From Terriglobales bacterium (GTDB taxonomy: Bacteria; Acidobacteriota; Terriglobia; Terriglobales; Acidobacteriaceae), in assembly GCA_037915955.1 (NCBI GenBank), contig JBAIYI010000094.1:1-25755 (forward strand): 25,755 bases of DNA. Reading direction: 5' to 3'. Positions 2,719 through 21,588 of this stretch are shown here, one piece after another. The stretch's first letter is position 1. The number at the start of each line of letters is the position of its first letter. Under the pieces are notes generated by a model, which did not search any database, was not told where the DNA came from, and saw only the letters and a program-made list of their open reading frames with translations. A program made the position numbers and the translations under genes.

Positions 2719-4089
2719 GTGGCAGAAACTCGCGTGATGAATCGAAACTTCATGTTCCTGTGGCAGGGCCAGATCGTCAGCCAGGTGGGAACGCAGCTCT
2801 TTCAGGTGATCGTCATCCTATCCCTTAAGCAAGCCACGCAGTCGGCGACTTTGGTTGGGCTGTTCATGATGGCCGCAACTGTGCCCGCTCTCTTGCTGGG
2901 CCCGCTGGGCGGCGCCGTGGTGGACCGCTACTCACGCAAGTCAGTCCTGGTGACGGGAGATTTGATCCGCGGGGTGGCGCTCACGGGTTTGGCTGCGGCT
3001 CTCTGGCTCGGCTCGCACTCGCTGACAATCGTGGTTGGATCGCTGTTCGTTTATTCGCTGCTTGAAGGCAGCGTTGGCGCGGTGTGGCAGCCGGCGAGTA
3101 TTTCCGTTGTGCCTGATCTGGTGCCGAAAGAAGGTGTGGGAACGGCGAACTCTTTCATCCAAGGTTCCTTTCAACTCTGTACGGTGCTGGGGCAGGTGAT
3201 CGCCGGAATACTGTTTCGCCTGGTGGGTGCGCCGCTGCTGATGCTGGTGGATGCTGCGACCTACTTCTATGCCGCTGTGAGCGATGCCTTCATTCGCATC
3301 CCCGCGGCCACAGCGAAAGCTTCAGACGAGACTCCGAAGGCAAAGAGTTTTAAAGCGGAGATCGTGGAAGGCCTGCGGCACATCCACACCCGTCCGGGGA
3401 TGCGGATGCTCTTCTACACCATGGCGTTCTTCCAGCTTGTCATGGTGCCAATGCTCATCCTCTTTCCCTTTTATGTAGAGGACTTTCTGCGAGCCGGGCC
3501 ACAGTGGTACGGCTTCCTGCTGGCAGCATCCGGGTTGGGAACCTTCGTTGGATACGGACTGGGAGGCGCACTCAAGCTGTCGCCGCGCAACTCCAGCAGC
3601 GTAACAGTATCCGTAATGGTTCTCATGTCGTTGTGCCTGACTGCACTGGCTTTTGCCAAAGGACCATGGATTGCCCTGGTGCTGATCGCAGCCGTTGGAG
3701 CCATGGACGGATTCATCGTTCTCAAGTTGTTGACAACTCTTCAACTAGCAACGCCTACGGAAATGCGTGGCCGCGTATTCGGACTGCTCATGACGATCAC
3801 TCGAGGACTTACTCCTGTCGCCATGGGGCTCACGGGAGTGATCGCTGACATGATGCATCGCAACATTCCGCTGATCTATGGCGTTTGCGGCGCGGTAGCC
3901 ACGCTGCTGGCGAGCAATGTGGCCGTCCGCGGTGAATGCCGAGCGTTTCTGGCGGGCGAAGACGCCACCGACCATGGCTCCGCTCCCACTCCGATTCAAA
4001 GCAAAGCTCCGGCTATGCTGGAAGCCCCAGACGCCGCTATGAACGCGCCTCTTCTCTGCCAGTTTGATTCCCTGCAGGAGATCAAATGA
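2719..4089 (+). CDS. MFS transporter, DHA3/macrolide-efflux-like, 456 aa
   Basis: About 12 hydrophobic segments; N-terminal NFMFLWQGQIVSQVG; motif A-like GGAVVDRYSRKSVLVTGDLIRG; AAGGAG RBS 8 nt before the GTG; stop overlaps the NRPS start (ATGA). Confidence 0.92.
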   Translation: MAETRVMNRNFMFLWQGQIVSQVGTQLFQVIVILSLKQATQSATLVGLFMMAATVPALLLGPLGGAVVDRYSRKSVLVTGDLIRGVALTGLAAALWLGSHSLTIVVGSLFVYSLLEGSVGAVWQPASISVVPDLVPKEGVGTANSFIQGSFQLCTVLGQVIAGILFRLVGAPLLMLVDAATYFYAAVSDAFIRIPAATAKASDETPKAKSFKAEIVEGLRHIHTRPGMRMLFYTMAFFQLVMVPMLILFPFYVEDFLRAGPQWYGFLLAASGLGTFVGYGLGGALKLSPRNSSSVTVSVMVLMSLCLTALAFAKGPWIALVLIAAVGAMDGFIVLKLLTTLQLATPTEMRGRVFGLLMTITRGLTPVAMGLTGVIADMMHRNIPLIYGVCGAVATLLASNVAVRGECRAFLAGEDATDHGSAPTPIQSKAPAMLEAPDAAMNAPLLCQFDSLQEIK

Positions 4090-7000: not shown

Positions 7001-9299
7001 AGATCGCCGGGCGTTGCCCGCACCTGACTGGAGCGAGAGTGCACGAGAATACCTGCCACCGCGCACGGAGGCCGAACAGAATATTGCTGCGATATGGCAG
7101 GAAGTGCTCGGCGTGAAAAGAATCGGGATCCACGACAACTTCTTTGAGATTGGTGGCCACTCACTGAACGCGACTCGTATCATCCTTGGCCTTCAATCGC
7201 GGTTTGGCCATGCAGTTTCGATTCGTACACTGTTCCTCAACCCTACCATTGCGGAGCTGGCATCCGCCTTGGGTGCGAGTAAAGTTGCTGTCGCCGAAAA
7301 GATACCGCTAGCTCCGGATAAAGATTGTTATTCGCTCGCACCGGCCCAGCAACCGATGTGGCTGGCATTTAATGACATTCTGCAGAGCGAATCGCCGGGC
7401 TGGGGGTTCCCGCAGATCATCCGTATTGAGGGCTCCGTTTCCCCGGACGCCCTGGCTGCCGCGCTCTCCCGTCTGGTTGAGCGGCATGACGCTTTGCGGA
7501 TCACGTTCCTTGAGCGCGACGGCGAGCCGCGGCAGCAGTTACATTCAAAGGTAGAGACCACACTACCTTTTCACGATTTTTCAGCTTTGGGCGAGCACGC
7601 CCGTGAAGAGGCCCTGCGGCGCCTGCTTGCTGATCAGCTTTCCGCGCCGCTCACGAATCGGCCACCCATGATACGGCTGCAGTTGGTGCGGCTGGCCGCC
7701 GATCTTCACTATGGGGTGATGCAGTTGCCGCACATAATTTCAGACGTGTGGACTGAACAGATTCTGGTCGAAGACCTTGCCGAGTTTTATAGCGCGATGA
7801 ACACCGGCCGATCCTCTCAGTTGCCAGAGCTACCAGCACGCTTTGTGGATTACGCGGAATGGCACACCACTCGGCTGAACTCGCAAGAGCTGATGGCGCA
7901 GAGAAATTACTGGCTTGAGCTGTTCCGCAATGCTCCCCAGCCTCTGAAACTGCAAGCGATTGGAGACAAAAACGTACGCGGAGCAGACAAGGGGGAGGCT
8001 GTTTCTCTGTCTCTCGCACTTGTCGCGAAATTGAGAGCCTTGGCGAGCGCCAACAACACTACGCTGTACACTTTGCTCCTCAGCTCCCTGCAGACGCTGC
8101 TGGCCCGGCTTACCGGGCTCACCGATGTGGTGGTTGGAACCGCGGTGAGTGGGCGCACGCATCCTGATCTGGAACGAATGGCCGGCTTCTTCATGAACCC
8201 GCTCGCTATGCGATCTGACCTGTCCGGCAATCCGAAGTTCAGCTCACTCCTGGGCCGAGTGCATCAAGGCATGTTGAGCGCGCTGGCAAACCAGGAGTAT
8301 CCCTTCCATCGCTGGCTGGAAGCTTCGCGACGGGAGAAGGGAAGTGCGGACTTCTACCCTCACTCGATTGTCTTACTCGTCGAAGAGCGCCCGCGAGACC
8401 TCTTCTTCGGCGGCGCCAGAGCGTATTTTGACTCCCTGCCCGGCTATAGCTTCGATCTTCGCCGAGTGGCGGGCCCAAACCTGGCCTTGCGCGTGTCAGA
8501 AGGCCGCGAGGGTTGGTGTGCTGAGCTTATTCCAGGAAGCCTGGATGAAGCGCCGCCCCCGGCCGGAATGTTGAGCTGGTGGTGCAGCCTGCTCCAGGAG
8601 ATCGTGGACGATCCTGGCCGTCCCATTGGTGATTACAGCCTGACGAGAAATGAAAGTCGCGATTTGGGTTCATCTCCTGAGTCGCTGGGTTGTGACGACG
8701 CTTTCACACAGTTGGCATTGAAGCTCCAGCGTTCTTCCGCAGGAACGGTTTTTGGACTCCTGACAGACGGTTCTGTGATTGAAAAGCAACCAGATCCGCT
8801 GGACCGGTTGCGAGCCCTGAGAGGCTTGCTCTCTTCCGGTCCTATCAAGGGAATTGCGGCAGATGCTGAGTTGTTGCTGGAGGCCGCGCAAAGAGAAGTA
8901 CTCACTCGTGATGTACTGCCTCAGCTGGAACGGGTGCTTGTACCCGCATCAACCCAGATTGATATTGCCCCGATTCGGCAAGCGCTGGGTATACGGGTGA
9001 GCGCGTTACTGGAACTGGATAATGTTTCTCACGCGGCGCTTTGGATAGACGATTTCGAACCGGGCAGCCCGCTGGTTGGCCGCAGTGCTGGCCCAGAGTT
9101 GGTGGTGATGGACGATTGGGGCAGCGAAACTCCTGCCGGCATCCCAGGCAGACTGTGCAGCAAGGACAAGCCATACGATGCTCCCGTAGCGCTGGGATGG
9201 AGCGCCAGGAGGCGCATGGACGGGATTCTTGAAGTCGAATCACGCCGGTTTGACACGGTTGAGTTAGACGCGGACGAACTGCAGGAACTGCTGCGGTGA
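4086..9299 (+). CDS. Non-ribosomal peptide synthetase, C-A-T-C plus degenerate C-terminal A-like remnant, no TE, 1737 aa
   Basis: C1 core SHLIIDG. A-domain motifs TYRELNERANRLA, LKAGAAYVPLD, YTSGSTGVPKG, FDISVWQ, NAWGPTE, YLTGDIG, GRRDGQVKIRGRRIE, LPEHMVP and TGKVDR. T-domain DNFFEIGGHSL. C2 core PHIISDV with GRTHPDLERMAGFFMN. No GxSxG TE motif after the T domain. Confidence 0.95.
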   Translation: MSSSAQHQPEPVPSGEPGTRELYPLSMNQRDMWFQSQIHSEEGLNNVCVQVTMDGKLDVECFRGAWQAVVNRHSALRTVFIERDGVPYQKVLPEAEVYFSIVDLSAEAPDEQAKSLKELEHQFAAKGFDFERGPLFRFCLARIADQQHVFLFTFSHLIIDGIYMSEIFDQVSASYESLAHGNDGKLTWLDLQYPEFAARQIERLENGLLAEHEKYWHEQLHAALPAMELPTDRASRKTTSFELGVLDVDVPESVFAKLKSFRKRYRTTVFRTVLAAFEVLLQQLTGENDLLLGVPFTTLPKHAPELLGFFGHMVPVRASLDGATRFTDLLSEVNRQMNNAQEHLEYPLFEAVRGLRIIRDPHRPLFPVVISQVRALESTMDGVRLNMVSRFVQGGVYHLWLTVRELKDGLSLGFYYNRQLLEGRPLQLIVDCMQQMLARVVENPDAPLSLLEVVSAAERERVLRFGNGGPAQESGLWLEQMLAKHASQQPTAIAASDGNGAVTYRELNERANRLANWLIAGGTRKGDRIGIMGQRSVGMLTTILAVLKAGAAYVPLDPKDPPERILGMIKDAGLKWLSVDGALAELGSRLACTAGCKTLSWNDVSAAGVNSPGDWKDSPSVEPSDVDYSGRDLAYIFYTSGSTGVPKGAMVERAGMQNHLLSKLYVLQMNPADVVVQNASHCFDISVWQFLAPLMAGGRVVIYDNELVLNPPALLQRVAGDGVTIFETVPSYLELLMGLEGVESLAGLRYLVSTAESLSVSLTDRWLRRFPHVPLVNAWGPTECSDDVTHEILQPGTEALERVGIGKPIRGSRVYVLDRELRLLPVGCVGEIAIGGICVGRGYIGDPAKTAKTFIPDPFGHAPGARLYLTGDIGRWRWDGSLEFLGRRDGQVKIRGRRIEIAEIEGVLGAHPCVAQAAATVHGGRLVAYWVGSDKVESRELRKFIAHRLPEHMVPEALMKLEKLPLTRTGKVDRRALPAPDWSESAREYLPPRTEAEQNIAAIWQEVLGVKRIGIHDNFFEIGGHSLNATRIILGLQSRFGHAVSIRTLFLNPTIAELASALGASKVAVAEKIPLAPDKDCYSLAPAQQPMWLAFNDILQSESPGWGFPQIIRIEGSVSPDALAAALSRLVERHDALRITFLERDGEPRQQLHSKVETTLPFHDFSALGEHAREEALRRLLADQLSAPLTNRPPMIRLQLVRLAADLHYGVMQLPHIISDVWTEQILVEDLAEFYSAMNTGRSSQLPELPARFVDYAEWHTTRLNSQELMAQRNYWLELFRNAPQPLKLQAIGDKNVRGADKGEAVSLSLALVAKLRALASANNTTLYTLLLSSLQTLLARLTGLTDVVVGTAVSGRTHPDLERMAGFFMNPLAMRSDLSGNPKFSSLLGRVHQGMLSALANQEYPFHRWLEASRREKGSADFYPHSIVLLVEERPRDLFFGGARAYFDSLPGYSFDLRRVAGPNLALRVSEGREGWCAELIPGSLDEAPPPAGMLSWWCSLLQEIVDDPGRPIGDYSLTRNESRDLGSSPESLGCDDAFTQLALKLQRSSAGTVFGLLTDGSVIEKQPDPLDRLRALRGLLSSGPIKGIAADAELLLEAAQREVLTRDVLPQLERVLVPASTQIDIAPIRQALGIRVSALLELDNVSHAALWIDDFEPGSPLVGRSAGPELVVMDDWGSETPAGIPGRLCSKDKPYDAPVALGWSARRRMDGILEVESRRFDTVELDADELQELLR

Positions 9300-9340
9300 T
9301 CAGCTTGCCGATACGGTTTCTTGTGGATCGGAGGACGAAA

Positions 9341-9919
9341 ATGCCGGGCGAAATCTCGAAACTACATTCACGACACTTGCGGCGCGCATGGAAGGAAGTG
9401 CAATCGGCCATCGCAGGAATGACTCCCGAGCAAATGACGTGGGCGCCGGAAGGGAAGTGGTCAGCTGCGAATTTGCTTGAGCATCTCTCGCTGGGCTTCC
9501 TCATTACCGTGAAGGCCTCCGGCGTGGTCCTGCGCCAGGAGAGCCCGGGGCTTCCTGAGGCCACGCGGAGCCAGCATTGGTGGACATTTCGGGTCATCAC
9601 GCTCGGGTACCTTCCCATGCGCGTAAAAGCACCCAGAATGGTTTGCCCAAGAGGACAGAGTCCGGAAGAAGCACTTACGGCGCTCATGGAGAACCTGGTG
9701 GAAATGGACCATCGTCTGCAGAAGTGTCACGAAAAATTTGGGACGAAGGTCGGCCTGCTGGCTCATCCGTATCTTGGGCCATTGACGGTAAATCAGTGGA
9801 GGAAGTTTCAGCTTTTTCACGTGCGCCGTCATATGAAGCAGATCTGGCAGCTGAGAAAGCAGATGGCGAGGGCGTCCACGGACGAAGCGGCTTCCCCGGT
9901 GCGGTCATCAGCAGCTTGA
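9341..9919 (+). CDS. DinB/DUF1569-superfamily protein (putative metal-dependent four-helix bundle), about 192 aa
   Basis: WSAANLLEHL and HPYLGPLTVNQWRKFQLFHVRRHMKQI match the DinB His pattern. GGAGG RBS precedes ATG 9341, so this start is preferred over the ORF-track start 9296. Confidence 0.8.
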   Translation: MPGEISKLHSRHLRRAWKEVQSAIAGMTPEQMTWAPEGKWSAANLLEHLSLGFLITVKASGVVLRQESPGLPEATRSQHWWTFRVITLGYLPMRVKAPRMVCPRGQSPEEALTALMENLVEMDHRLQKCHEKFGTKVGLLAHPYLGPLTVNQWRKFQLFHVRRHMKQIWQLRKQMARASTDEAASPVRSSAA

Positions 9920-9923: not shown

Positions 9924-9959
9924 GGTCCGCCGCTGGACATGGCAGTCCAGAAATGGACA
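9924..9959. promoter_or_regulatory. Tandem dyad site pair A (putative enhancer/UAS of a sigma54 activator)
   Basis: GGTCCG-CCGC-TGGACA (9924-9939) and AGTCCA-GAAA-TGGACA (9944-9959), 20-bp period, upstream of permease 1. Confidence 0.7.
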
Positions 9960-10003: not shown

Positions 10004-10028
10004 TTCAAAGCCCATACGTCTGCCTGAA

Positions 10029-10043: not shown

Positions 10044-10089
10044 GAGCTTAAAAGTGGGCCAAAACTGTGACCGGAATTGGAGATAGAAC

Positions 10090-12549
10090 GTGAGTACCCT
10101 GAGACAAGATATCCAGTACGCACTGCGGCAGATGCTGAAGAACCCCGGCTTTGCGCTCGTGGCGATCGTGACGTTAGCGTTGGGGATCGGCACCAACACA
10201 GCGATTTTCAGCGTGGTCAACGGCTGGCTCAGGCCATTGCCGGTCAAAGATCCCAACCGAGTGGTGGTATTGGCTGCACAGCAAAAGGGAGACACGCTGG
10301 GCATCTATTACTTCTCCTATCCGGACCTGGTTGATTTCCGCAAACAGGCGGCAACATTTTCTGACTTGTTTGCCTACGAGATTGGCCTGGGCGGTCTAAG
10401 CATAGAGGGCAAGGCAGAGCCCGTCGTATTCAGCTACGTGACAGGGAACTTCTTCTCGGCCCTGGGAGTTCAACCCGCCGCAGGCCGACTTTTTCTACCG
10501 AATGAAGGTGAACAGCCCGGCGCAACACCCATGGTGGTGCTGGGCTATTCGTATTGGCAGAAAAGGTTTTCAGGAGACATCGGCATTGTCGGAAAGCAAG
10601 TACGCTTAGATGGCAATGCGGCAGTCGTGATAGGAGTTGCCCCCAGAGGCTTCCACGGCGTGGCGCCGAATGTGGACATGCAGGCATACCTGCCGCTAAG
10701 CATGCTCGCGGGTGAGACTCGCGGAAACGGGCTGTGGACAGAGCGAGGACAGAGAACGCTGGCGGTGCTCGGAAGAGTCAAGGATAACGTTACACTTGCG
10801 CAGGCACAGAGTTCGGTAACTCTTGTCGCAAATCGGCTGGCCCTGGAATATCCAAAGACAGACGATGGAGTCAGCGTCACCGTGGTTCCAGAAAAACTCG
10901 CCCGCCCGGTTCCCAAGATGGCAAGTGCGATTCCTGTGATCGCAGGATTGTTTCTGGTGATGGCCGGAGTGGTGCTCGTGCTTGCGTGTATGAACGTGGC
11001 AAACCTGATGCTCGCGCGAGCCACGACTCGCCAAAAAGAGATATCCGTGCGAATGGCACTGGGAGCGAGCCGTGTCCGCGTTGTGCGGCAATTGCTGACG
11101 GAAAGCATCGTCCTTGCGCTTTTCAGCGGAATATCCGGTGTACTGCTGGGAATGTGGGCCAGTGGCGCAATAGGATCGATCAACCTGGGAACGAAACTCC
11201 CACTGGTGCTGGATTTCGGTTTGGATTGGCGCGTGTTCGCCTATAGCCTGCTGGCGGCGCTGGTGACTGGCGTGATTGTGGGCGCATGGCCAGCATTGCG
11301 CGCAGCCCGCGGTGGACTCAGCGCAGGACTGCAAGACGGAAGCCGCGGCGGATCAGCCAGCGCCAGCAGGGTTCGCGTGCGCAGCCTGCTGGTCGTCGCG
11401 CAGGTAGGCTGCTCTCTTATGCTGCTGGTGGTGGCGGCGCGATTTGTGCGCAGCCTTGATAAGGCACAGCACATGGCGCTCGGCTTTGAGCCGGAGAATG
11501 TGGTTAACGTGATGGTGGATCCACATCAGGTCGGGTACGACCAGACGCGGACAGTCGAGTTCTATCGTGAACTGGAACGGCGCGTGCGAGCGCTGCCCGG
11601 AGTGCAGTCCGCGAGCCAGGCATTCAGCGTCCCCATGGGTAATTACAACGACGGCAGCCCTGTCTATATCGAAGGTCAACCCCTGCCGCCGGGGCAACAG
11701 CCACCGCTGCTTTTCTTCAACAGAATTGGAACGGATTATTTTCAGACATTACGAACTTCGCTGCTTCGCGGACGCACCTTCACGGAAGCAGATAACGGCA
11801 GCGCACCCCTGGTGGCGGTTATCAACCAGGCCATGGCAGACCGCTTCTGGCCGAAAGAGGACGCAGTCGGGAAACGCTTCAGCATGAAGAGCGCCTCCGG
11901 ACCCTTCCTGCAAGTGATTGGCATCGCACATGACAGCAAGCTCTTCGGATACTTCTCCGGAGCGCTACCTTATTATTACGTTCCGTTTGACCAGAACTTC
12001 ACCTCAATGAGGATCCTGCAGGTGCGTTCGTCTGTGGCTTCGGAAACATTGATCTCGCAGCTCAAAGAACAGGTGCAATCGCTCGATCCGGAAATGCCCG
12101 TCTCTGATCTACAGACCATGCGTGAAGTCATGGAAGGCGGAAATGGATTTCTTGTATACCGGCTGGGCGCAGCCCTGACCGCGATCATGGGCATACTCGG
12201 GTTCGTTATCGCGGTGGTGGGTGTGTACGGAGTGGTCTCATTCGCAGCGGCTCAGCGCACGCGGGAAATCGGGGTACGCATGGCGCTTGGAGCCAGCAAA
12301 GGCAACATACTCAATCTCATCCTGGGGCAGGGTGTGCGGCTGATCACCATTGGGGCCATGCTGGGATTGATAGCTGCCTTTGGGCTGACCCGCGCAATGG
12401 CGAAACTGCTGGTAGGAATAAGTGCCGGCGATCCGGGAACGTTTGTTCCCGCTACATCGATCTTACTGCTGGTTGCGCTTGGCGCTTGTTACATACCCGC
12501 GCGACGCGCAATGCGGCTTGATCCAGTGGTTGCTCTGCGTCACGAGTAG
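10090..12549 (+). CDS. ABC transporter permease, duplicated MacB_PCD/FtsX type (ADOP-like), 819 aa
   Basis: N-terminal LRQDIQYALRQMLKNPGF...LALGIGTNTAIFSVVN; two FtsX repeats (RQKEISVRMALGAS and RTREIGVRMALGAS); C-terminal ARRAMRLDPVVALRHE; no Walker motifs. Confidence 0.93.
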   Translation: MSTLRQDIQYALRQMLKNPGFALVAIVTLALGIGTNTAIFSVVNGWLRPLPVKDPNRVVVLAAQQKGDTLGIYYFSYPDLVDFRKQAATFSDLFAYEIGLGGLSIEGKAEPVVFSYVTGNFFSALGVQPAAGRLFLPNEGEQPGATPMVVLGYSYWQKRFSGDIGIVGKQVRLDGNAAVVIGVAPRGFHGVAPNVDMQAYLPLSMLAGETRGNGLWTERGQRTLAVLGRVKDNVTLAQAQSSVTLVANRLALEYPKTDDGVSVTVVPEKLARPVPKMASAIPVIAGLFLVMAGVVLVLACMNVANLMLARATTRQKEISVRMALGASRVRVVRQLLTESIVLALFSGISGVLLGMWASGAIGSINLGTKLPLVLDFGLDWRVFAYSLLAALVTGVIVGAWPALRAARGGLSAGLQDGSRGGSASASRVRVRSLLVVAQVGCSLMLLVVAARFVRSLDKAQHMALGFEPENVVNVMVDPHQVGYDQTRTVEFYRELERRVRALPGVQSASQAFSVPMGNYNDGSPVYIEGQPLPPGQQPPLLFFNRIGTDYFQTLRTSLLRGRTFTEADNGSAPLVAVINQAMADRFWPKEDAVGKRFSMKSASGPFLQVIGIAHDSKLFGYFSGALPYYYVPFDQNFTSMRILQVRSSVASETLISQLKEQVQSLDPEMPVSDLQTMREVMEGGNGFLVYRLGAALTAIMGILGFVIAVVGVYGVVSFAAAQRTREIGVRMALGASKGNILNLILGQGVRLITIGAMLGLIAAFGLTRAMAKLLVGISAGDPGTFVPATSILLLVALGACYIPARRAMRLDPVVALRHE

Positions 12550-12645: not shown

Positions 12646-14064
12646 TCATTGCGACTGCGCGCCGTTCCCATGGGCGACGATGCACTCCGGGATTTTGATT
12701 TCAGCTTCGCAACCGGAAACATCAACGCGATTGCGAAGAAGCAGGCTTCCGCCGTGCGCCTCCACGATCTGCCGGCACAGCACCAGACCTATTCCGGCCC
12801 CGCCTTCCTTGGTCGTATAAAACGGCACAAATAAATTGGATGGATCAAGAAGGCCGAGACCCTGATCGCGGACCCACAATTCGAGATCACTGCCCGTTTG
12901 CTTCCAACTCACTGTCACTAGCGGTTCATCCCGCTGTGACGCTTCGGGTCTGGCCAGCACTGCTTCGGTGGCGTTCTTGATGAGGTTAATTAAGACCTGC
13001 TCCAATTGATCAGGATCCAGGTTGACGGTGAGTTCCGGTCCGGGATCCAGTCCGACCTGCAGCCTGCATTCAAGCCCGGCAACCCGCTTGAGCAGCTTGT
13101 TCAGGCATACATCGCGGCGGGCAGGTGCAGGAAGCCGAGTGAGCTGGGCATAACTCTGAAGGAAGCGATTTAACGCTTCGGCACGCGTTCCAATCACTTC
13201 CAGTCCAAGATCAACGTCCTTGTGGATGCGGTCCGGCAGCGTGGTTTGCGAAAGGATCCTTGCAAGCGTGCGGGACACGGACTTGATCGGAGCCAGAGAA
13301 TTGTTGATCTCATGGCTCAAGACGCGGACCATGCGCTGCCATGCCTGACGCTCTTCCGCGCGTAGAGCTTCTGAAGCTTCCGAGAGCAAGATCAGCCTGT
13401 GAGGAATGCCGCTCTGGCGGAAGTGCGTACGGCGGACGATCCAACGCTTCTCCTGGCCATTTGAAAAGCGCGAGATGGTTTGCGAAGGCGGCCCTTCCAG
13501 CAGCTCGGCAATACCGAGATCGGCCGCGGTGCTGCTGATCGCTGTGGTTTCACGTATCCCCAAGAACCTGGCCGCGGCACGATTATGGAGTTGAAGGCGG
13601 CCGTCCATGGTGAATGCCATGATGACGTCATCCGCTTCCGAGATGACCTTACGCAGCAGGTTTTCGGCTTCCATGGTTCCCAGGCGCTCAGATTCAAGCG
13701 CGCGGGCGAGATTGTTGATTTCAATTGCCAGGTCGCCAAGAGCATCACCGGACAAGGCGCGTGTAGCGCGAAACGAAAAGTCTTCTTCCTTCACTGAGGC
13801 GACGACATTCGAGAGGACGCGCATGGCATTCACGACCCGATTGCGCGCGGAGAAGGCCAGCCCGAGCCAGAAGAGCCCGACAAATACAGTTCCCTCAATC
13901 TTATGGTCGAGAGCATAAGAGCCGGACCAGAGCAGAGCAAACGCCAGGACCCCACAAGGAAGCCCAGTGGCGAGAACGGAAAACAGCAGCCTTCGTTCGA
14001 AGGGTATGCTGGATGCCGGCTTATGCTTTCTCTTTTTTGACTGCGGAAGGAACATAGAGGCCAT
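12646..14064 (-). CDS. Membrane sensor histidine kinase (NtrY/NtrB-like, PAS-like central region), about 472 aa
   Basis: Two N-terminal TM segments; H-box LSHEINNSLAPI; N-box EQVLINLIKNA; G1 DQGLG; F-box LFVPFYTTK; G2 GAGIGL. Start placed at ATG 14064 (MASMFLPQ; alternative 14055) rather than 14175. Confidence 0.92.
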   Translation of the reverse strand: MASMFLPQSKKRKHKPASSIPFERRLLFSVLATGLPCGVLAFALLWSGSYALDHKIEGTVFVGLFWLGLAFSARNRVVNAMRVLSNVVASVKEEDFSFRATRALSGDALGDLAIEINNLARALESERLGTMEAENLLRKVISEADDVIMAFTMDGRLQLHNRAAARFLGIRETTAISSTAADLGIAELLEGPPSQTISRFSNGQEKRWIVRRTHFRQSGIPHRLILLSEASEALRAEERQAWQRMVRVLSHEINNSLAPIKSVSRTLARILSQTTLPDRIHKDVDLGLEVIGTRAEALNRFLQSYAQLTRLPAPARRDVCLNKLLKRVAGLECRLQVGLDPGPELTVNLDPDQLEQVLINLIKNATEAVLARPEASQRDEPLVTVSWKQTGSDLELWVRDQGLGLLDPSNLFVPFYTTKEGGAGIGLVLCRQIVEAHGGSLLLRNRVDVSGCEAEIKIPECIVAHGNGAQSQ

Positions 14065-15517
14065 GTTTTTCCATGCGCCGGTAGAAGGTTCCCCTGCTGA
14101 GTCCCAGGATCTCCGCAGCCTGGCTAACGTTGCCATTGAAGCGCGCGAGCGCCTTGCCGATGAGCAAGGCCTCAACCTGTTCCAGGCTCATATCTCCGAG
14201 CCCTGTGGCATCAGCGACGCTAGCCGTAGTGAGTCCCAGATGACTGGCCTCAATCCTTTCGTCACGGCACATAAGAACACCACGTTCGATGGTGTGGTCC
14301 AGCTCCCGCACATTGCCCGGCCATGAGTAATCGAGGAGCTTTTTCATTGCTTCCGGAGTGAAACCCTCAATCTGCTTGCCGTAACGCGTGCTGTACTTAT
14401 GCAGAAAGTGCGCCGCCAACGCGGGTATGTCTTCCTTCCGCTCGCGGAGGGCGGGCAGGTGAATTTCTACAGTATTTAAACGGAACAGGAGGTCTTCGCG
14501 GAAATCGCCGGCCGCGCAGGCAGCCTTGAGGTCAGCGTTGGTGGCGGAAATAACACGAACATTCACCTTTTGAGTCCGGGACGAACCGACCCGCTCCATT
14601 TCTCCGGTTTCCAGAACACGAAGAAGGCGGGCCTGCTGCCGCATGGGAACATTGGCTATTTCATCCAGGAAGAGGGTGCCGCCATCGGCCATCTCAAAGC
14701 GGCCGATGCGATCGGTACGCGCGTCAGTGAATGCGCCGCGGACATGCCCGAAGAGTTCGCTTTCGAAGGTGCCTTCCGGAAGACCGCCTGTGTTCACGGT
14801 GATGAGAGGTTTTTCTGCCCGGCGCGAGACGGCATGGAGCATCTGAGCAACGACTTCCTTGCCGGTGCCGTGCTCGCCGGTGATGAGCACGCTGGCGTCC
14901 GAAGGACCGAATTGGGCAATTGCATCGGCCACGGGACGCATGGAGGGCGCCTGGGCAATGAATGTGGTGCGCCCGCGGTTCCGCATCAGATGATTTTCTG
15001 CCGCCAGTCGCTGCCCCTGACGAAGGGCGCGGTAGAGTTCGGCATGCACGGTGATGGTAGCGACCAGCCGCTCATCATCCCACGGCTTCTGGATGAAGTC
15101 ACGCGCACCGCGACGCACCGCGGCAACCGCTAAATCAATGGTTCCCCATGCGGTCATCACGATAATCGGAATCTGACTGTCAATTTCGCGGATACGATCC
15201 AGAAGCTCGATGCCTTCGCGTCCCGAGGTGGTATCGCGCGCGTAATTCAGGTCGAGCAGCAATGCATCGTATTCGCGCAGTGTAATGGACTCGAGCACGA
15301 CCTGAGGCGAGCGAACGCAGTCAACCTCGAAGCCATGGGAGCGAAAGAGCAACTTCAGAGCATCGAGAACGGCAGCCTGATCATCGGCCACCAGGATGCG
15401 GTAGGGGTGTTCGCTGATACGCACGCTGCTGTCCTCTCTTGCGTAAACAGGCATTGCACCGATTGAGAGGAGATCTGCGGCGAGGTCAAATGGGTATAGC
15501 GTTCCCATTGTCATCAC
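14021..15517 (-). CDS. Sigma54-dependent response regulator (REC-AAA+-Fis HTH); start uncertain (15517 is coupled to the permease 2 stop, or 15454)
   Basis: REC motifs ILVADD, LLDLNY, MTAWG and FIQKPW; Walker A GEHGTGKE; ESELFGHVRGAFTDA; TLFLDEI; WPGNVREL; HTH GNVSQAAEILGLSRGTFYRRM. Confidence 0.95.
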   Translation of the reverse strand: MMTMGTLYPFDLAADLLSIGAMPVYAREDSSVRISEHPYRILVADDQAAVLDALKLLFRSHGFEVDCVRSPQVVLESITLREYDALLLDLNYARDTTSGREGIELLDRIREIDSQIPIIVMTAWGTIDLAVAAVRRGARDFIQKPWDDERLVATITVHAELYRALRQGQRLAAENHLMRNRGRTTFIAQAPSMRPVADAIAQFGPSDASVLITGEHGTGKEVVAQMLHAVSRRAEKPLITVNTGGLPEGTFESELFGHVRGAFTDARTDRIGRFEMADGGTLFLDEIANVPMRQQARLLRVLETGEMERVGSSRTQKVNVRVISATNADLKAACAAGDFREDLLFRLNTVEIHLPALRERKEDIPALAAHFLHKYSTRYGKQIEGFTPEAMKKLLDYSWPGNVRELDHTIERGVLMCRDERIEASHLGLTTASVADATGLGDMSLEQVEALLIGKALARFNGNVSQAAEILGLSRGTFYRRMEKHGLYVPSAVKKEKA

Positions 15518-17949
15518 TCGCTCCTCAGCACGGCCATCGGCTCAATCGCCGTTGCACGAACAGCGATCAGCAGGCTGGTCACGAGAGCAATGCCGGCAAG
15601 AACAAGCGCAGCGCCAGCCAGCGAGCTCCATGTTATGCCGACCGTATTATAGATTACGAGTTTCAGCGTGTTTGCGAGTAGAACGCTCGCCAAAGCGCCG
15701 AGCGCGATTCCAATCAGTACCATACCGACTCCCTGCCTGATAATCAGGCTGATGATGTGAGCGCGCCTGGCGCCCACTGCCACGCGCATGGCAATCTCAC
15801 GCGTGCGCAAGACGAGGTGATAACTGAGCAGCCCGTAAAGGCCAACCGCGGTGAGTAACAGGGCGAAAACCCCAAAGATACCGGTAAGAGACACGTAAAA
15901 ACGAGGTCGAGCCAGCGAACCAGAAAGGACCTCCCGGAGAGGCCGAAGCGAGACGAGAGCAAGGTCAGAATCAGCACTTGCCAGCGGATGGCTGAGCGCC
16001 TGATAAAGATTGGCGCGACTGCTGGAACGGATCACGACAGACGTGGGAAACAGCAGATTTACGAAAACGGAAATTTTATCGGGGGTCTGTTTCAGACAAA
16101 TGAACGATGTGGGCGGAGCAGGTCGATCCAGCCCAGCTTCATGGACGTCAGCGACCACACCAACCACTTCGCGGGGAACGTCAGAGAATTGAGAGCCTAG
16201 ATCACTCCGCAGCGCGATGAACTTTCCCACGGCGGATTGATTCGGCCACCAGCGCCGAGCCAGAGTCTCATTCACGATAATCACCGGGCGGCCACCCTGG
16301 TCGTCGCGATCCGAGAAAGTGCGCCCGGTCCGAACGGGGATTCGCATTGTCTGGAAATATCCCGGGGTGATCACGCGCAGCTGGGATTCGCCATAGATCG
16401 TCTTGTCCTGTGCGTCCACAGGATAGAGCGGAAGGCCGAGCCCTTGTTCGAGGGGTAATCCATTGATTGTGGCGACGCTCTCCACGCCTGGCACCTGGGT
16501 CAAGGCATCGCGAATCTGATCAATCAACTGCACGGTGGCAGGCGTGGTGGTGTAGCGCCCGTCAATGAGCGAGATTTGCGCGACAGAAACCCCTTCCGCC
16601 TCAAAACCCGGCGAGACTGCATGGAGACGTAGAAACTGCGTCAACAGGGATGCTGTGCCCGCGAGCAGGCACAGCGTGAGCGCGGTCTGGGCAGTCACGA
16701 GAGCGCTCCCCAGCCGGGTCTGCTGGACCGTGGAAGTGCCCGAGAGAGGTGATTGTCGCAGTACGTCCTGGATGTGCACACCGGACATACGCAATGCAGG
16801 CGCTATGCCAGGCAGAACGGCTGCCGCGGCGGAGATCAACAAGATGAACAAGAGGACGTTGCCATCGATGGCTATGGCAGAGCTGAGGGGCAGGTCAGCC
16901 GGAGCCAGCCACTTGACGACGGGGATCAACTCCTTGCCCGCAATGGCGCCGAGGATACCTCCAGAAACCGCGATGAGCACGGCCTCCATCAGCCCCACGC
17001 TGATCAGGCGCCACCTGCTGGATCCAAGGGCAGCGCGAATGGCGAATTCATGACGCCGGGACGCTCCACGGACGGTAAAACACAAAGCCAGATTTGTGCA
17101 GGTGATAAGCAGAACAAATACGACTGCCCCGAATAACGAATAAAGACCGCGCCGGGTACCATCGACGATGAAGGATTGGAGTTCCTCAGGAACAAGGGCG
17201 GTTTCCGACGCCATGGAACGCAACGGATAAGTCGACCGGTATTCCGCAGATGTCGCCAGCTCCTGACGGGCCTGTTCTGCAGTGACGCCACCCTTCAGGC
17301 GGGCGATTACCCGATATTCGTTTCCCGCATCAGCGTTTGCCGGCGTGAGCCGCAATGGTATCCAGAGGTCCGCGGAGGGAAATGACCGAAACTTTTGCGG
17401 CATGATGCCGACGACAGTGTAGGGTTCGCCACTGATCCTAACGGAGGAGCCGATCACCGCAAGGTCTTTGTTGTAATCCTGGACCCAGGCGCCATAGCTC
17501 AACAGGACAGCGCGCGGGCCGCCGGGCTGGTCCTCTTCAGGAAGAAAGTCGCGGCCACGGTAAGGTGCTGCGCCAAGCGTCCGGAAGAAATTCAGAGATA
17601 CCTTCTGCACGTGCCTGTACTGAGGAGTTCCTATTCCGGCAACATTTACTCCACTATCCCGCGCTGCGGCAATGCTGGAAAAGAAGTGACCGCGCTCTTT
17701 CAGCTCGAAAAACGCAGACGCGGAGATATCGCGGGTAAGGCGACCTTCTGGGCCATACCAGGTCAAGATCACCAGCCGTTCAGGCTCCGAATAAGGGAGA
17801 GGGCGGAGCAATGCGGCATTGATGACACTGAACACAACCACGTTCGCGGCGATACCGATCGCGAGCGTCAAAACAGCCATCACCGTGAACCCCTGAGTAC
17901 GCTGAAGCGAACGCAGAGAATATGTGATGTCCTGTAAAAAACTGTGCAT
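15514..17949 (-). CDS. Second duplicated ABC permease (ADOP-like); likely start ATG 17949 (MHSFLQD...), ORF-track start 18006
   Basis: FLQDITYSLRSL...LTLAIGIAANVVVFSVINA; RRHEFAIRAALGSS; RTREIAMRVAVGA; C-terminal RATAIEPMAVLRSE; stop overlaps the regulator start. Confidence 0.92.
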   Translation of the reverse strand: MHSFLQDITYSLRSLQRTQGFTVMAVLTLAIGIAANVVVFSVINAALLRPLPYSEPERLVILTWYGPEGRLTRDISASAFFELKERGHFFSSIAAARDSGVNVAGIGTPQYRHVQKVSLNFFRTLGAAPYRGRDFLPEEDQPGGPRAVLLSYGAWVQDYNKDLAVIGSSVRISGEPYTVVGIMPQKFRSFPSADLWIPLRLTPANADAGNEYRVIARLKGGVTAEQARQELATSAEYRSTYPLRSMASETALVPEELQSFIVDGTRRGLYSLFGAVVFVLLITCTNLALCFTVRGASRRHEFAIRAALGSSRWRLISVGLMEAVLIAVSGGILGAIAGKELIPVVKWLAPADLPLSSAIAIDGNVLLFILLISAAAAVLPGIAPALRMSGVHIQDVLRQSPLSGTSTVQQTRLGSALVTAQTALTLCLLAGTASLLTQFLRLHAVSPGFEAEGVSVAQISLIDGRYTTTPATVQLIDQIRDALTQVPGVESVATINGLPLEQGLGLPLYPVDAQDKTIYGESQLRVITPGYFQTMRIPVRTGRTFSDRDDQGGRPVIIVNETLARRWWPNQSAVGKFIALRSDLGSQFSDVPREVVGVVADVHEAGLDRPAPPTSFICLKQTPDKISVFVNLLFPTSVVIRSSSRANLYQALSHPLASADSDLALVSLRPLREVLSGSLARPRFYVSLTGIFGVFALLLTAVGLYGLLSYHLVLRTREIAMRVAVGARRAHIISLIIRQGVGMVLIGIALGALASVLLANTLKLVIYNTVGITWSSLAGAALVLAGIALVTSLLIAVRATAIEPMAVLRSE

Positions 17950-18027
17950 TGCGCCGTGGCATCTCCTGGAACCCACTGCCGCCGTGGAGTACTCACTCTG
18001 CTCCACGGCGAGTGCTCTCTTTCAGCA

Positions 18028-18093: not shown

Positions 18094-18129
18094 TGTCCGC
18101 GGGCGGACACCCCTGTCCAGTGCTGGACA
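18094..18129. promoter_or_regulatory. Tandem dyad site pair B (best match to consensus)
   Basis: TGTCCG-CGGG-CGGACA (18094-18109) and TGTCCA-GTGC-TGGACA (18114-18129), both perfect dyads, 20-bp period. Confidence 0.8.
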
Positions 18130-18242: not shown

Positions 18243-18278
18243 TGTTCGCACGTGGACATGGCAATCCAGCTCTGGACA
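18243..18278. promoter_or_regulatory. Tandem dyad site pair C, upstream of lanA-lanKC
   Basis: TGTTCG-CACG-TGGACA (18243-18258) and AATCCA-GCTC-TGGACA (18263-18278), 20-bp period, with the same TGGC spacer as pair A. Confidence 0.65.
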
Positions 18279-18542
18279 ACCAGAACCCCGCTGGATCGAT
18301 TCACAAGGTGCAAAGAATCGGAATGTGAGTGCGCAAATTTGCACTCAGGAAACATCGGTTTTTGCGAGAGGAAAAGAGGGACCGGCATGGGTGCTCTGCC
18401 CGGACGGCAAAATTAGGAAACACATAGCTTTGCGCTGTTTTTGCGAATCCCGAAATAGAAAACTCGGAAGCAGTGGAGAGCGTGTGATCTTCGATTCTCT
18501 GAAACTGTATTCGTGGTTGTCACAAAGGGTGTGTGACGGATT

Positions 18543-18558
18543 TGGCAGAGATCATGCT
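18543..18558 (+). promoter_or_regulatory. Sigma54 -24/-12 promoter of lanA-lanKC
   Basis: TGGCAGAGATCATGCT: GG at 18544-45 and GC at 18556-57 with exactly 10 nt between, about 50 nt upstream of the precursor ATG. Confidence 0.7.
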
Positions 18559-18755: not shown

Positions 18756-18796
18756 GGGCCCTCTGACGATATTCCCCCATTTGCGACAGAGGGCCC
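18756..18796 (+). other. Stem-loop between lanA and lanKC (mRNA stabiliser/attenuator candidate)
   Basis: GGGCCCTCTG (18756-65) pairs perfectly with CAGAGGGCCC (18787-96); no U-tract follows. Confidence 0.65.
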
Positions 18797-18819: not shown

Positions 18820-21588
18820 ATGCGGAGCAGACCCAATCCGTTATTTCGACTCCTGGACCACGATTACCACGAGACCTTCACAGCGTATAAGCCTCGCACG
18901 GCAGATTTCTTCGACGCGATTTCCCGGAAGCTGCCCAGTGGATGGTCCATTCAACGCAGCGGAATCTGGTTCCACTGTGGTTCACAAAACAACAATGTTC
19001 CGCAGCAGGGATGGAAGATTCACGTTTCGGCGACACCTGCCAGCGCGGGTGCGATCCTGGAGCAAGTGACCACGGTGCTCTTCAGGCGTTGTGATACGGA
19101 TTTCAAATTCGCGCTGGACATGAACACACTTTCCCTGATGAACAGCAAGAACTGGTCGCGCGGGAAATCAGGAAAGTTCATCACAATCTATCCGCAGACT
19201 ACTGCAGATTTCCGGCAACTCATTGAAGAGCTATACCAGGCGACGCGAACATTCTGCGGTCCTTATATTCTGTCTGACCATCGTTACAAAGACAGCCGGG
19301 TTGTCTTCTTTCGCTATGGTGGCATGCGCCTGCATGAAACCCTGAATGTGAAGGGGGAACGCACGCCCATGCTGATAGCTCCTGACGGGACAGAAGTTCC
19401 CGATGAGCGCACTCCGTATCCGGTGGTACCTGCATGGGAGAATCCGCCTATTCCGGTTGAGGATCCGTCCCAACCCGATCCTCCAACCTGCACGATGAAG
19501 CAAGGCCGGTATGAGATCGAAGATGTGCTGGATTTCTCCAATGCCGGCGGTGTGTACCGCGCATTGGATACACACACCGGCCGCAAGGTGGTGATCAAGG
19601 AAGCGCGGCCATGCGTGAATGCAACCCCGGACGGATACGATGCGGTGGAATCGCTCAAGAAAGAATACCGGCTGCTCAACGTACTGAAAGAGGCCGGCAT
19701 TGCTCCTGCACCCCTGGAACTGTTTCAGGAATGGGAGCATTGGTTTCTGGTGGAAGAATTCGTGGCAGGCCTTTCACTGGCGGCACACTCGGCGCAACAC
19801 AACGTCCTGCTACGCACCAGGCCATCACAAAAGGATTTTGAGGACTGGTATGAGAGATTCCGCGGCATATGCAGCGGCCTGGCACGAATCTTGAAGACCC
19901 TGCACGACCATGGGATCGTGTTTGCGGATCTCTCTATCAACAACCTGATTGTTGCCGACTCAGATGGGGAGCTCAAGATCATTGATTTTGAGGGAGCTAC
20001 CCAGGCAGGAGTTGACCGGCCAAGCTCGCTGTACACGCCCGGCTTTGTCTCTGAGAAGAGGCTGAAAGGCGCAAGCGCCGGGTTCGATGACGATTACTAT
20101 TCTGCGGGCGCCGTGCTGATGGCCTGTCTGTTCCCAGTCAATGCCCTGATCCACCTCAATGGGCAAGCGAAGCGGACCTTTATTGAATGCATAAATAAGG
20201 ATACGCGGTTCCCCAAGCCGGTCACGGACATGGTGCTCCAGTTGATGGGGTCGGAACCGGAGAACCGGCCAGATTCCGCGACAATGATTGAAGTCATCGA
20301 GCATAATCCAACCCTTGCTCCGCCAGCTGCTCAGGTGCGTCCAAAATATGAACATGAGGCTTTACTCTCATCGATGGTGGCTCACCTGGAGCACTCGGCC
20401 AGCTATTGGCGCGATGACCGGCTCTTCCCCGCGGATCCCAGGGTATTCACGACTAACCCGCTGAGCCTGGCCTATGGAGCAGCCGGAGTGGGTTATTCAT
20501 TGAAGAAGGTCACGGGCAAAAGTTCACCGCTCATCATGGACTGGATCCTGCGGCACAAAATCAGCCGTGAAGATTACGCGCCAGGACTGTATGTCGGACT
20601 GTCAGGAATAGCGCTGGGCCTTCTTGAAATGGGTGCGCTCGATGACGCGAGAAAAATATTCCAGCTCACGTTTGAGCATCCTCTGCTGCACAAAGATCCC
20701 GGAATTTTCTACGGCACAGCGGGCTGGGGTATGACGTGCCTGCGTTTCTTTCTTGAAAGCGGAGATGAACTTTACCTGAAAAAAGCGGAAGCGGCTGGTC
20801 GTGCCCTGATGCAACGGGTGCACGTCTCTCCGGCCGGATATTCCTGGGAAGCTGCGAGCGAAGCACAACTCGGTTTCGCACACGGCGCCAGCGGCATTGC
20901 CCTGTTCCTGCTTTATCTCTCCTTCGCCACGCACAATTTTGAGTTTCTGGAAGCGGGACGCAAGGCGCTTGAGTTCGACTTAAGTTTTGCGGTGACAACG
21001 CAGGACGGCGGCTCTTCCTGGCGACAGGCAGTCCATGGGCAGTCGCCGGTTTTTCCGTACTGGCGATACGGGAGCGCGGGCATCGGAACCGCCGCACTGC
21101 GTTTTGCCAAGGTCCTCGACGATCCGATATATCGTGCCGCGCTGGAGAAAATATTCATCGATACCGACCGCCAGTATGTGGTGATGCCTGGGAAATTTCT
21201 TGGGCAGGCCGGGTTGGCAGACTTTGCCCTTGATATGTTCGAGTTCACGGGCAGCACAAGATATCTGAAATCCGCCTTGCGGGCGAGCGAAAGCATGGAG
21301 CGGTTCCGCGTAGAGAGACCGCAGGGCACGGCGTTTCCCGGTGACATGCTCTCACGGTTGTGCTGCGATTACGGCACGGGAAGCGCGGGCATCGCGCTGG
21401 TATTCAACCGGCTGGCTCACGGCGAACGGAATGACTTCCTGCTGGACTGCCTGCTGGAGCAGGCCGGCATTCTTGATAAACCACAACGGAACAGAAGAAG
21501 CCTCTCTGCTGCCCTGCTTGCCGAGGACTATTCCAATCACGATTCAGATTCGGGCGACGACAGGCCACCGCTGATCTCAGTAGCGTGA
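18820..21588 (+). CDS. lanKC: Class III lanthipeptide synthetase (lyase-kinase-cyclase), about 922 aa
   Basis: Lyase motifs QGWKIHVSA, GKFITIYP, GPYILSD and FFRYGG; kinase motifs FSNAGGVY, VVIKEARP, FADLSINNLIV and IIDFE; cyclase motifs GFAHGASGIA, PYWRYGSAGIG and CCDYGTGSAGI, lacking WCHG/CHG Zn ligands. AAGAGG RBS precedes ATG 18820, preferred over TTG 18781, which lies inside the hairpin. Confidence 0.93.
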   Translation: MRSRPNPLFRLLDHDYHETFTAYKPRTADFFDAISRKLPSGWSIQRSGIWFHCGSQNNNVPQQGWKIHVSATPASAGAILEQVTTVLFRRCDTDFKFALDMNTLSLMNSKNWSRGKSGKFITIYPQTTADFRQLIEELYQATRTFCGPYILSDHRYKDSRVVFFRYGGMRLHETLNVKGERTPMLIAPDGTEVPDERTPYPVVPAWENPPIPVEDPSQPDPPTCTMKQGRYEIEDVLDFSNAGGVYRALDTHTGRKVVIKEARPCVNATPDGYDAVESLKKEYRLLNVLKEAGIAPAPLELFQEWEHWFLVEEFVAGLSLAAHSAQHNVLLRTRPSQKDFEDWYERFRGICSGLARILKTLHDHGIVFADLSINNLIVADSDGELKIIDFEGATQAGVDRPSSLYTPGFVSEKRLKGASAGFDDDYYSAGAVLMACLFPVNALIHLNGQAKRTFIECINKDTRFPKPVTDMVLQLMGSEPENRPDSATMIEVIEHNPTLAPPAAQVRPKYEHEALLSSMVAHLEHSASYWRDDRLFPADPRVFTTNPLSLAYGAAGVGYSLKKVTGKSSPLIMDWILRHKISREDYAPGLYVGLSGIALGLLEMGALDDARKIFQLTFEHPLLHKDPGIFYGTAGWGMTCLRFFLESGDELYLKKAEAAGRALMQRVHVSPAGYSWEAASEAQLGFAHGASGIALFLLYLSFATHNFEFLEAGRKALEFDLSFAVTTQDGGSSWRQAVHGQSPVFPYWRYGSAGIGTAALRFAKVLDDPIYRAALEKIFIDTDRQYVVMPGKFLGQAGLADFALDMFEFTGSTRYLKSALRASESMERFRVERPQGTAFPGDMLSRLCCDYGTGSAGIALVFNRLAHGERNDFLLDCLLEQAGILDKPQRNRRSLSAALLAEDYSNHDSDSGDDRPPLISVA

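Follow-up and report, generated by a model that had tools for sequence, protein, structure and literature searches.

Shared sigma-54 control elements suggest joint activation of an NRPS cluster and a class III lanthipeptide module in an uncultured Acidobacteriota bacterium

Gene content of the locus

The window analyzed here (the whole stretch of DNA under study, 25,755 nucleotides) is a complete contig, C4, of a genome bin from an uncultured Acidobacteriota-type bacterium. It carries two biosynthetic gene sets: on the left, the end of a nonribosomal peptide synthetase (NRPS) operon; on the right, a class III lanthipeptide module composed of the precursor gene lanA, the gene of the lanthionine synthetase LanKC, and transport and regulatory genes (Table 1). 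The initial annotation had proposed that the last condensation domain of the NRPS modifies the lanthipeptide, yielding a covalent hybrid, with two independent adjacent clusters as the alternative. Neither fits cleanly: the linkage between the two sets is real and probably regulatory, and no direct evidence for a hybrid emerged. Considering the conserved sequence elements together with the orthologous loci, we propose that two chemically separate products are kept in one regulatory cascade, a reading to which we assign a probability of roughly 0.5. The shared sigma-54 control elements suggest that the NRPS and lanthipeptide gene sets are switched on together.

The general layout given by the initial annotation was confirmed. 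The stop codon of the NRPS gene (9299) and lanA (18609) are separated by 9.3 kb (about 9 kb had been stated), and this interval contains only the genes of a DinB protein, two ADOP permeases, and a sigma-54 two-component system. The contig is truncated within the NRPS operon, the promoter of which falls outside the window, as had been noted.

Table 1. Features of the window, with positions, strands, and supporting observations
Feature	Position	Strand	Remarks
Cysteine-synthase/SbnA-like pyridoxal phosphate (PLP) enzyme (DabB-like), 3' end	2..280	+	Last 92 codons, cut by contig start
ATP-grasp protein, equivalent of the N-terminal half of DabC-type fusions	277..1542	+	Pfam ATP-grasp_4 and LAL_C2
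GntG-family PLP-dependent aldolase (threonine-aldolase-like)	1546..2658	+	NF041359, 439 bits (cut-off 230); Pfam Beta_elim_lyase
Major facilitator superfamily (MFS) efflux transporter of the NRPS operon	2719..4089	+	Pfam MFS_1, MFS_3; 77-80% identity, syntenic in orthologous clusters
NRPS subunit: C1 - A (diamino-acid-type pocket) - T - C2 - decayed A-like remnant - acidic C-terminal helix	4086..9299	+	Pfam Condensation/AMP-binding/PP-binding/Condensation; 1737 amino acids (aa)
DinB_2 superfamily protein	9296..9919	+	Pfam DinB_2; start overlaps NRPS stop by 4 nt (translationally coupled)
Tandem dyad GTCC-N6-GGAC x2, 20-bp period, upstream of ADOP1	9925..9958	.	Same place in 7 orthologous contigs
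Sigma-54-like -24/-12 element upstream of ADOP1	about 10028-10043	.	After the tandem dyad
ADOP-family duplicated permease 1 (ADOP1)	10090..12549	+	TIGR03434, 870 bits (cut-off 622); 82-84% identity in orthologous contigs
Histidine kinase, longest open reading frame (ORF)	12646..14175	-	Pfam HATPase_c; weak PAS and HisKA matches
NtrC-type sigma-54 response regulator (receiver - AAA+ - Fis-type helix-turn-helix)	14021..15517	-	Domain matches
ADOP-family duplicated permease 2 (ADOP2), divergent from lanA	15514..18006	-	TIGR03434, 747 bits
Tandem dyad GTCC-N6-GGAC x2, ADOP2-lanA intergenic	18095..18128	.	Also conserved in NRPS-free loci
Looser dyad pair, ADOP2-lanA intergenic	18244-18281	.	Second pair
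Sigma-54 promoter of lanA, TTTGGCAG-N5-CATGCT	18541..18557	+	Invariant in six aligned contigs; also found by pattern search
lanA, class III lanthipeptide precursor, 45 aa	18609..18746	+	Shine-Dalgarno AGGAG before ATG
Hairpin between lanA and lanKC	18756..18796	+	13-nt arms, 92% complementary
LanKC, class III lanthionine synthetase (RamC_N - kinase - LanC-like)	18820..21588	+	Pfam RamC_N, Pkinase, LANC_like
Single GTCC-N6-GGAC dyad before second activator	21701-21714	+	Conserved in L033, L066, L067, L068
Sigma-54 promoter TGGCAAGCTGCTTGC before second activator	21766-21780	+	Conserved in L033, L066, L067, L068
Second sigma-54 activator, no receiver domain	21921..23570	+	220-aa N-terminal domain without family match
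Small membrane protein downstream of activator	23567..23974	+	62-70% identity, same position in L033, L066, L067, L068; no family match

The NRPS subunit and its cluster

The initial annotation had described a one-module NRPS ending with a condensation (C) domain. The order of the condensation, adenylation (A), and carrier (T) domains is indeed C-A-T-C, although about 200 residues follow C2, comprising the decayed A-like remnant and the acidic helix. The orthologues include 13 proteins of 1737-1769 aa and one of 2242 aa (P0017). The C1 motif SHLIxDG (SHLIIDG) and the C2 motif PHIISD (PHIISDV) are kept in 13 orthologues, the catalytic His-x3-Asp of C2 is intact in 13/13, and the overall conservation of C2 equals that of the remaining protein. 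Both C domains score highest against ordinary elongation domains (Txo1/2, DhbF, TycC, PvdL), which disfavors C1 as a starter (lipo-initiation) domain. The tail is the protein's least conserved region (30-42% identity), except for its last 18 residues (R-Q-F-D-T-L-E-L-D-A-E-E-L-E-E-L-L-R), nearly invariant across the orthologues, which we interpret as a docking-type helix.

In no orthologue does a working carrier domain follow C2 in cis. Candidate acceptors in trans are an A-less C-T module in a partner NRPS of 2452 aa and a free acyl carrier protein (ACP), both encoded in the orthologous clusters. In P0017, about 500 extra residues lie between the A-like remnant and the shared C-terminal helix; they contain a carrier-like stretch in which Ala replaces the phosphopantetheine Ser, and then another C-like domain. 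The tail of the window NRPS may be what remains of a decayed module.

The adenylation pocket, read by manual alignment to the GrsA motifs, is D-I-W-E-V-T-A-D-D-K and is invariant in 13 orthologues. Its three acidic residues would fit a cationic side chain. The pocket is one residue off what we take to be a diaminobutyrate (Dab) code; a literature search for the code string found no paper.

The left part of the window is the 3' end of a larger NRPS/fatty-acid-type cluster, the conserved order of which was read in the orthologous contigs: type II thioesterase, glycosyltransferase, MbtH, free C domain, and 2452-aa NRPS; then argininosuccinate-lyase-like enzyme, GHMP kinase, patatin, ACP, ketosynthase (KS), PLP enzyme, ATP-grasp protein, and aldolase; finally MFS transporter, window-type NRPS, DinB, and often a second PLP enzyme. 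DinB follows the NRPS in most of these contigs and is missing from one. The partner NRPS contains a single A-less C-T module besides three condensation-type domains, and it ends in a thioesterase. In the bin of the window, the partner NRPS, thioesterase, lyase, and further cluster pieces lie on contigs C769, C849, C840, and C411, with the thioesterase-bearing partner on C849. Thus, the description of the NRPS as lacking a thioesterase is true of the protein and not of the pathway. The subunit carries C, A, and T domains with their catalytic motifs and the release domain is encoded elsewhere in the cluster, as in a multi-subunit NRPS. As a further observation, the first module of the partner NRPS (G151, L034:3048-10406, minus strand; C769 in the own genome) consists of a C domain, an adenylation remnant of about 100 residues, and a carrier domain; since the module has no working A domain, this first carrier depends on loading in trans.

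The cluster also encodes a likely supply of the diamino acid. In the DabABC pathway, represented in the Burkholderia thailandensis monobactam cluster, friulimicin, and pacidamycin (PMC10906522), a threonine kinase, an aspartate-adding cysteine-synthase-like enzyme, and an ATP-grasp/argininosuccinate-lyase-like enzyme (DabC) were shown experimentally to produce (2S,3R)-2,3-diaminobutyrate; the same route gives diaminopropionate from phosphoserine, and DabC can exist as two separate proteins (PMC10906522). Assigning roles after that work, we found all the enzyme functions here: kinase, PLP beta-replacement enzyme, and ATP-grasp/lyase, with DabC split in its two halves and an adenylation pocket with three acidic residues. 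Indeed, the ATP-grasp protein aligns to positions 5-401 of the 890-position PRK02186 model, and the separate lyase to positions 408-887. The PLP fragment at the contig start is 80% identical to residues 281-372 of its G151 orthologue, whose top NCBIfam match is the SbnA family (262 bits, under the 350 cut-off). The weakest assignment is the kinase, a GHMP-kinase-fold gene that adjoins the lyase gene and has no NCBIfam match. Differently from the DabABC systems, the kinase and lyase genes lie outside the window, there is an extra GntG-like aldolase, and the orthologues add a threonine-dehydratase-like PLP enzyme. The label of diamino-acid operon used in the initial annotation is well founded, as judged from the acidic pocket, invariant in the 13 orthologues, and from the DabABC-type supply set.

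On this basis, the kinase, the cysteine-synthase-like PLP enzyme, and the ATP-grasp and argininosuccinate-lyase pair would supply 2,3-diaminobutyrate or 2,3-diaminopropionate. The C-A-T-C subunit would load it and pass the chain within the synthetase complex through C2 and the acidic C-terminal helix, with release by the thioesterase of the partner NRPS encoded on other contigs.

The lanthipeptide module and its linkage to the NRPS

LanKC scores 760 bits against the NCBIfam class III equivalog NF038151 (cut-off 575) and 575 against the class IV model (cut-off 650). Its ORF opens at a TTG (18781) and runs through the hairpin; the likely start is the ATG at 18820, giving 922 aa and matching the recorded form of the protein (P0123). 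Five other contigs have a LanA of 61-73% identity immediately before LanKC, which indicates that this short ORF is real. The invariant positions are V4, L5, L7, and Q8 (the VLxLQ leader motif, VLMLQ in the window), the ring motif S25-A-V-S28-x-x-C31-P, and the terminal PFQME; the ring spacing is S-x2-S-x2-C instead of the usual S-x2-S-x3-C. A tridomain LanKC and an adjoining precursor with leader and Ser/Ser/Cys ring motifs place the module in class III. This LanA pattern was found in about 20 loci, as a single design both with and without a linked NRPS. A Ser/Thr-rich stretch between leader and ring, HSNSSxSEF/C, is common to the NRPS-linked LanAs and missing from the NRPS-free ones. In the window, a second Cys (Cys19, 18663-18665, in STSEC) could close an S-x2-S-x3-C ring; this position is Phe in all five LanA orthologues, and only the second ring motif is conserved. 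The hairpin between lanA and lanKC is a possible attenuator.

The longest ORFs of kinase and response regulator overlap by 155 nt; in the orthologues (kinase of 483-490 aa) the overlap is about 30 nt, so that the true kinase start is probably later, near 14050-14100. The response regulator is 68-77% identical to those beside LanKC in NRPS-free loci and 83-87% identical to those in NRPS-linked loci. The module (kinase, regulator, ADOP permease, lanA, and LanKC) is autonomous and common across the Acidobacteriota, and LanKC would mature the 45-aa LanA. In orthologous and sister loci, LanKC is followed by a separate LanC-like gene of about 430 aa (L033:12867-14153, minus strand; L066:12716-14008; L067:5023-6306; L149:12726-13973); in the window this gene is missing and the promoter of the second activator comes directly.

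The module resembles known class III clusters (SapB/RamC, labyrinthopeptin LabKC, curvopeptin) in the tridomain synthetase with RamC_N lyase, kinase, and a LanC-like cyclase without the full set of zinc ligands, in the VLxLQ-type leader motif and Ser-x2-Ser-x2-Cys ring motif of the precursor, and in the position of the precursor gene, immediately before that of the synthetase and separated from it by a hairpin. It differs in the very short leader (about 3 residues from LQ to the first Ser), in the single ring motif with two spacer residues instead of three kept by the orthologues, in the long conserved C-terminal tail ending with PFQME, in the control by a sigma-54 promoter and an NtrC-type two-component system, in the ADOP permeases that replace the classical ABC exporter, and in the host, an uncultured Acidobacteriota-type bacterium. 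The permeases may be compared by analogy with BceAB-BceRS modules: MacB/FtsX-type permeases with large extracytoplasmic domains stand beside a two-component system, their genes are apparently targeted by the regulator, and the set adjoins a peptide-antibiotic-like cluster. Unlike in BceAB-BceRS, the ADOP permeases are duplicated, no ATPase gene is nearby, and the regulator is an NtrC-type sigma-54 activator rather than an OmpR-type one.

Then, we evaluated how often the two gene sets occur together. A LanKC module lies within 20 kb of the NRPS orthologue in all the contigs long enough to judge (9/9), and eight of the nine are arranged as NRPS-(DinB)-ADOP1-kinase-regulator-ADOP2-lanA-LanKC. This group comprises the window, G151:C57, GCA_041481995.1, two contigs from ENA (103 kb, and 134 kb without DinB), two from JGI (83 kb and 701 kb), and L069. 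The 701-kb contig was counted with its LanKC flank unread, since it follows the shared arrangement up to an ADOP2 protein identical to the one in GCA_041481995.1; the downstream flanks of L064 and L065 were reached through the ADOP2 protein. The ninth contig harbors the closest NRPS orthologue (P0004, 70%) in a rearranged locus: LanKC and the NRPS are separated by about 19 kb; insertions comprise a fatty-acyl-AMP-ligase/acyl-CoA-dehydrogenase fusion, an ACP, and an aldolase; the block of permease and two-component genes is inverted; and there is a remnant of a transposase. In the LanKC tree, the first eight group in a single 12-row clade (support 100/99), and the ninth belongs to a different clade that also contains NRPS-free Angelobacter sequences (100/100). 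Given 1-2 LanKC genes in a genome of 4-8 Mb, the odds of a second chance placement within 20 kb are about 1%. In-place replacement of the LanKC gene by recombination in the ninth contig is conceivable.

The reverse association does not hold. A total of 1119 LanKC homologues below 1e-100 were found among 5.8 billion proteins, mostly under the labels Candidatus Angelobacter or Acidobacteriia. Of 13 acidobacterial-type LanKC loci from species genomes, 12 have an ADOP2 orthologue (42-47%) and the response regulator (68-77%) beside LanKC and no NRPS orthologue. LanKC with permease and two-component system and without NRPS also occurs in loci L035-L047, L149, and L150, and, among G151 and 60 relatives, LanKC is present in 12 genomes and the NRPS in G151 only (LanKC without NRPS in 11/12). 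In five NRPS-free LanKC genomes, C2 plus tail matched at most generic C domains. In the clade nearest to the NRPS-linked LanKCs, kinase-regulator-ADOP2 and lanA-LanKC-LanC lie amid housekeeping genes, without NRPS, ADOP1, or second activator. Independent occurrence of the two genes, proposed at first as the finding that would argue against a hybrid, is thus seen for LanKC and never for the NRPS.

Across this acidobacterial family (L035-L047, L149, L150; LanKC mostly at about 10001-12700), an ADOP permease, an NtrC-type regulator, and GTCC-N6-GGAC operators recur, and LanA combines a VLxLQ leader with just one S-x2-S-x2-C-P ring and a tail that ends in F-(Q/E)-M-E. Two of the NRPS-free-type LanKCs have other biosynthetic genes downstream: homologues of the ATP-grasp protein (31%) and of the aldolase (50%) at 7-10 kb (L042:19621-22634), and an unrelated NRPS (30%) at 3.5 kb (L039:9747-15311).

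Such a distribution could also arise if the two sets were mere neighbors: the NRPS cluster would have been acquired once beside the lanthipeptide module, and the block then inherited or transferred, with the second activator controlling something else. Each module is complete by itself; three of the about four linked lineages have the same gene order with LanKCs in one clade, which fits a single origin; and the genomes are rich in NRPSs (45 C-domain matches in G152), as the unrelated NRPS near LanKC in L039 illustrates. Against mere neighborhood, the LanKC found close to the nearest NRPS orthologue belongs to a different clade, and that locus is rearranged and retains part of a transposase, which implies that the adjacency survived or re-formed; moreover, the NRPS was never found without LanKC. 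Furthermore, both the NRPS orthologue and LanKC were not found in 150 genomes sampled from the family of the bin, so that the pair appears to move together.

The NRPS orthologue was likewise not found in 400 genomes sampled from the class of the bin. The family and class samples contain two complete genomes of the bin's genus, and the family tally contains one unpublished genome (G025), which underlies none of the conclusions. The nearest copies of NRPS and LanKC are in Angelobacter-like genomes. We weighed a foreign origin or mis-binning of the contig; the bin (75% complete, 918 contigs, 4.2 Mb) has a G+C content of 57.9%, matched by the 57.4% of the window, in which it is even at about 57-58%, and the bin holds the remainder of the cluster. 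Either the locus is an accessory island or the contig was mis-binned.

Regulatory elements and the relation between the two products

The strict dyad GTCC-N6-GGAC occurs five times in the window: as tandem pairs at 9925/9945 and 18095/18115, and as a single copy at 21701. The three placements (upstream of ADOP1, between ADOP2 and lanA, and before the second activator) are present in every orthologous contig. The whole 4.2-Mb bin contains 55 single dyads, with 0.34 expected per window, and only two tandem pairs, both in the window. The initial annotation had indicated the region upstream of the NRPS operon as the place to search for the same tandem dyad; it was not found upstream of the NRPS operons in the orthologues, which instead have divergent sigma-54 promoters, themselves conserved, in the patatin-ACP interval, along with further conserved blocks. 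This placement argues for a regulatory linkage through a cascade, and not for acylation of the lanthipeptide by C2.

The second activator is present in 6/6 NRPS-linked loci that could be judged and in 0/8 NRPS-free loci with sufficient flanking sequence; a search for its N-terminal domain gave a match in G151 and none in 4 NRPS-free LanKC genomes. Because this activator tracks the NRPS and not LanKC, and carries both the dyad and a sigma-54 promoter, while the NRPS operons have sigma-54 promoters of their own and no dyad, we propose the following cascade. The NtrC-type two-component system would bind the tandem GTCC-N6-GGAC operators and drive the sigma-54 promoters of lanA-lanKC and of the ADOP permeases, the role of which is probably export, immunity, or sensing. 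In the lineages carrying the NRPS, the operator of the same regulator also precedes the receiver-less activator, which would in turn activate the NRPS operons through their sigma-54 promoters. Both products could then be raised by one signal.

Several points weigh against this overall reading of two separate products in one cascade. Six of the nine linked contigs form one close clade, so that the independent lineages are about four, and three of these share one arrangement that was possibly inherited. The binding site of the second activator was not identified. The NRPS promoters lie outside the window and were read in the orthologues, with one sigma-54-like site on C840 in the own genome; sigma-54 promoters are common in the phylum, and their occurrence at the NRPS operons is weak evidence for the second activator. 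The acceptor of C2, with no carrier domain in cis in any orthologue, is unexplained.

The regulatory elements also bear on the view of the two sets as mere neighbors. The lack of the regulator's dyad at the NRPS operon agrees with it, yet the second activator is NRPS-specific and carries the operator of the lanthipeptide regulator, which speaks against two unconnected clusters. Taking gene distribution and operators together, we consider mere adjacency plausible, though less likely than the regulatory cascade.

A covalent hybrid of a peptide made on the ribosome and modified after translation (RiPP) with an NRPS product appears improbable. Here, C2 would transfer the T-bound (acyl-)diamino acid to the matured, leader-free LanA, or the two would be joined otherwise. 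C2 is the only candidate coupling enzyme, and no known coupling enzyme is present. In favor of a hybrid, C2 keeps its catalytic His-x3-Asp and is no less conserved than the remaining protein, no orthologue has a working carrier domain after it (not even P0017, with Ala in place of Ser), the NRPS is always accompanied by LanKC, the Ser/Thr-rich stretch is restricted to the NRPS-linked LanAs, and the lanthipeptide module has the NRPS cluster on one side and the likely activator of that cluster on the other. Conversely, the known N-acylated RiPPs, among them lipolanthines, goadvionins, lipoavitides, and selidamides, are acylated by GNAT enzymes once the leader has been removed (PMC13647313). No GNAT or leader peptidase was found in the window or in the orthologous gene tables, and the core peptide has no Lys, leaving the N-terminus freed by leader removal as the sole possible acceptor. 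Furthermore, in most genomes the same LanA design and LanKC function with no NRPS; thioesterases and an MFS exporter belong to the NRPS cluster itself; and C2 looks like a standard elongation C domain, in a protein that terminates in a docking-like helix. We know of no precedent for a C domain acylating a RiPP and of no established family of covalent RiPP-NRPS hybrids. We hold little expectation for the corresponding product, a lanthipeptide whose N-terminus would bear a 2,3-diamino acid, acylated or not, with the Ser/Thr-rich LanA segment as recognition or attachment region.

The idea of an N-terminally decorated lanthipeptide derives from the lipolanthines and goadvionins (microvionin, nocavionin, goadvionin), which the locus resembles in having a class III-type LanKC near fatty-acid/polyketide-type genes; indeed, the orthologous cluster has a KS and an ACP. 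Differently from lipolanthines, all six LanAs end with PFQME and lack a C-terminal Cys, so that an avionin cannot form, and the partner is an NRPS machinery that has a thioesterase of its own. No LanD-type cysteine decarboxylase/flavoprotein gene and no match to the GNAT family were found among the window ORFs or in the orthologous gene tables. With no LanD, no C-terminal Cys, and no GNAT, membership in the lipolanthines was rejected.

At the right end of the window, synteny stops after the small membrane protein. The region 23975-25755 has a lower G+C content (52%) and no conserved gene. Next comes an open-ended protein of 267 aa, an unassigned secreted protein whose start resembles a signal peptide and which matches no family; orthologous loci have a TonB_C protein or other genes at this place. 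Pfam gave no significant family for the 200-aa NRPS tail, the N-terminal domain of the second activator, and the last two ORFs of the window. Rfam and tRNA scans of the window gave no matches.

If the hybrid were real, it would represent a new way of joining ribosomal and nonribosomal chemistry and the first RiPP decorated by an NRPS condensation domain. Independently of it, the analysis revealed a large acidobacterial class III family: it counts over 1000 LanKC homologues, its precursors share one design, and the permease and two-component partner is constant; literature searches found no description of acidobacterial class III loci of this type. Acidobacteriota are rich in gene clusters, and to our knowledge no product of such loci has been isolated. 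The proposed cascade defines which genes should be cloned together, and the two-component regulator, the GTCC-N6-GGAC operator, and the second activator may offer a handle for activating both silent clusters. If the cascade is true, the locus would be a clear case of ribosomal and nonribosomal peptide pathways placed in one sigma-54 circuit in an uncultured member of the Acidobacteriota.

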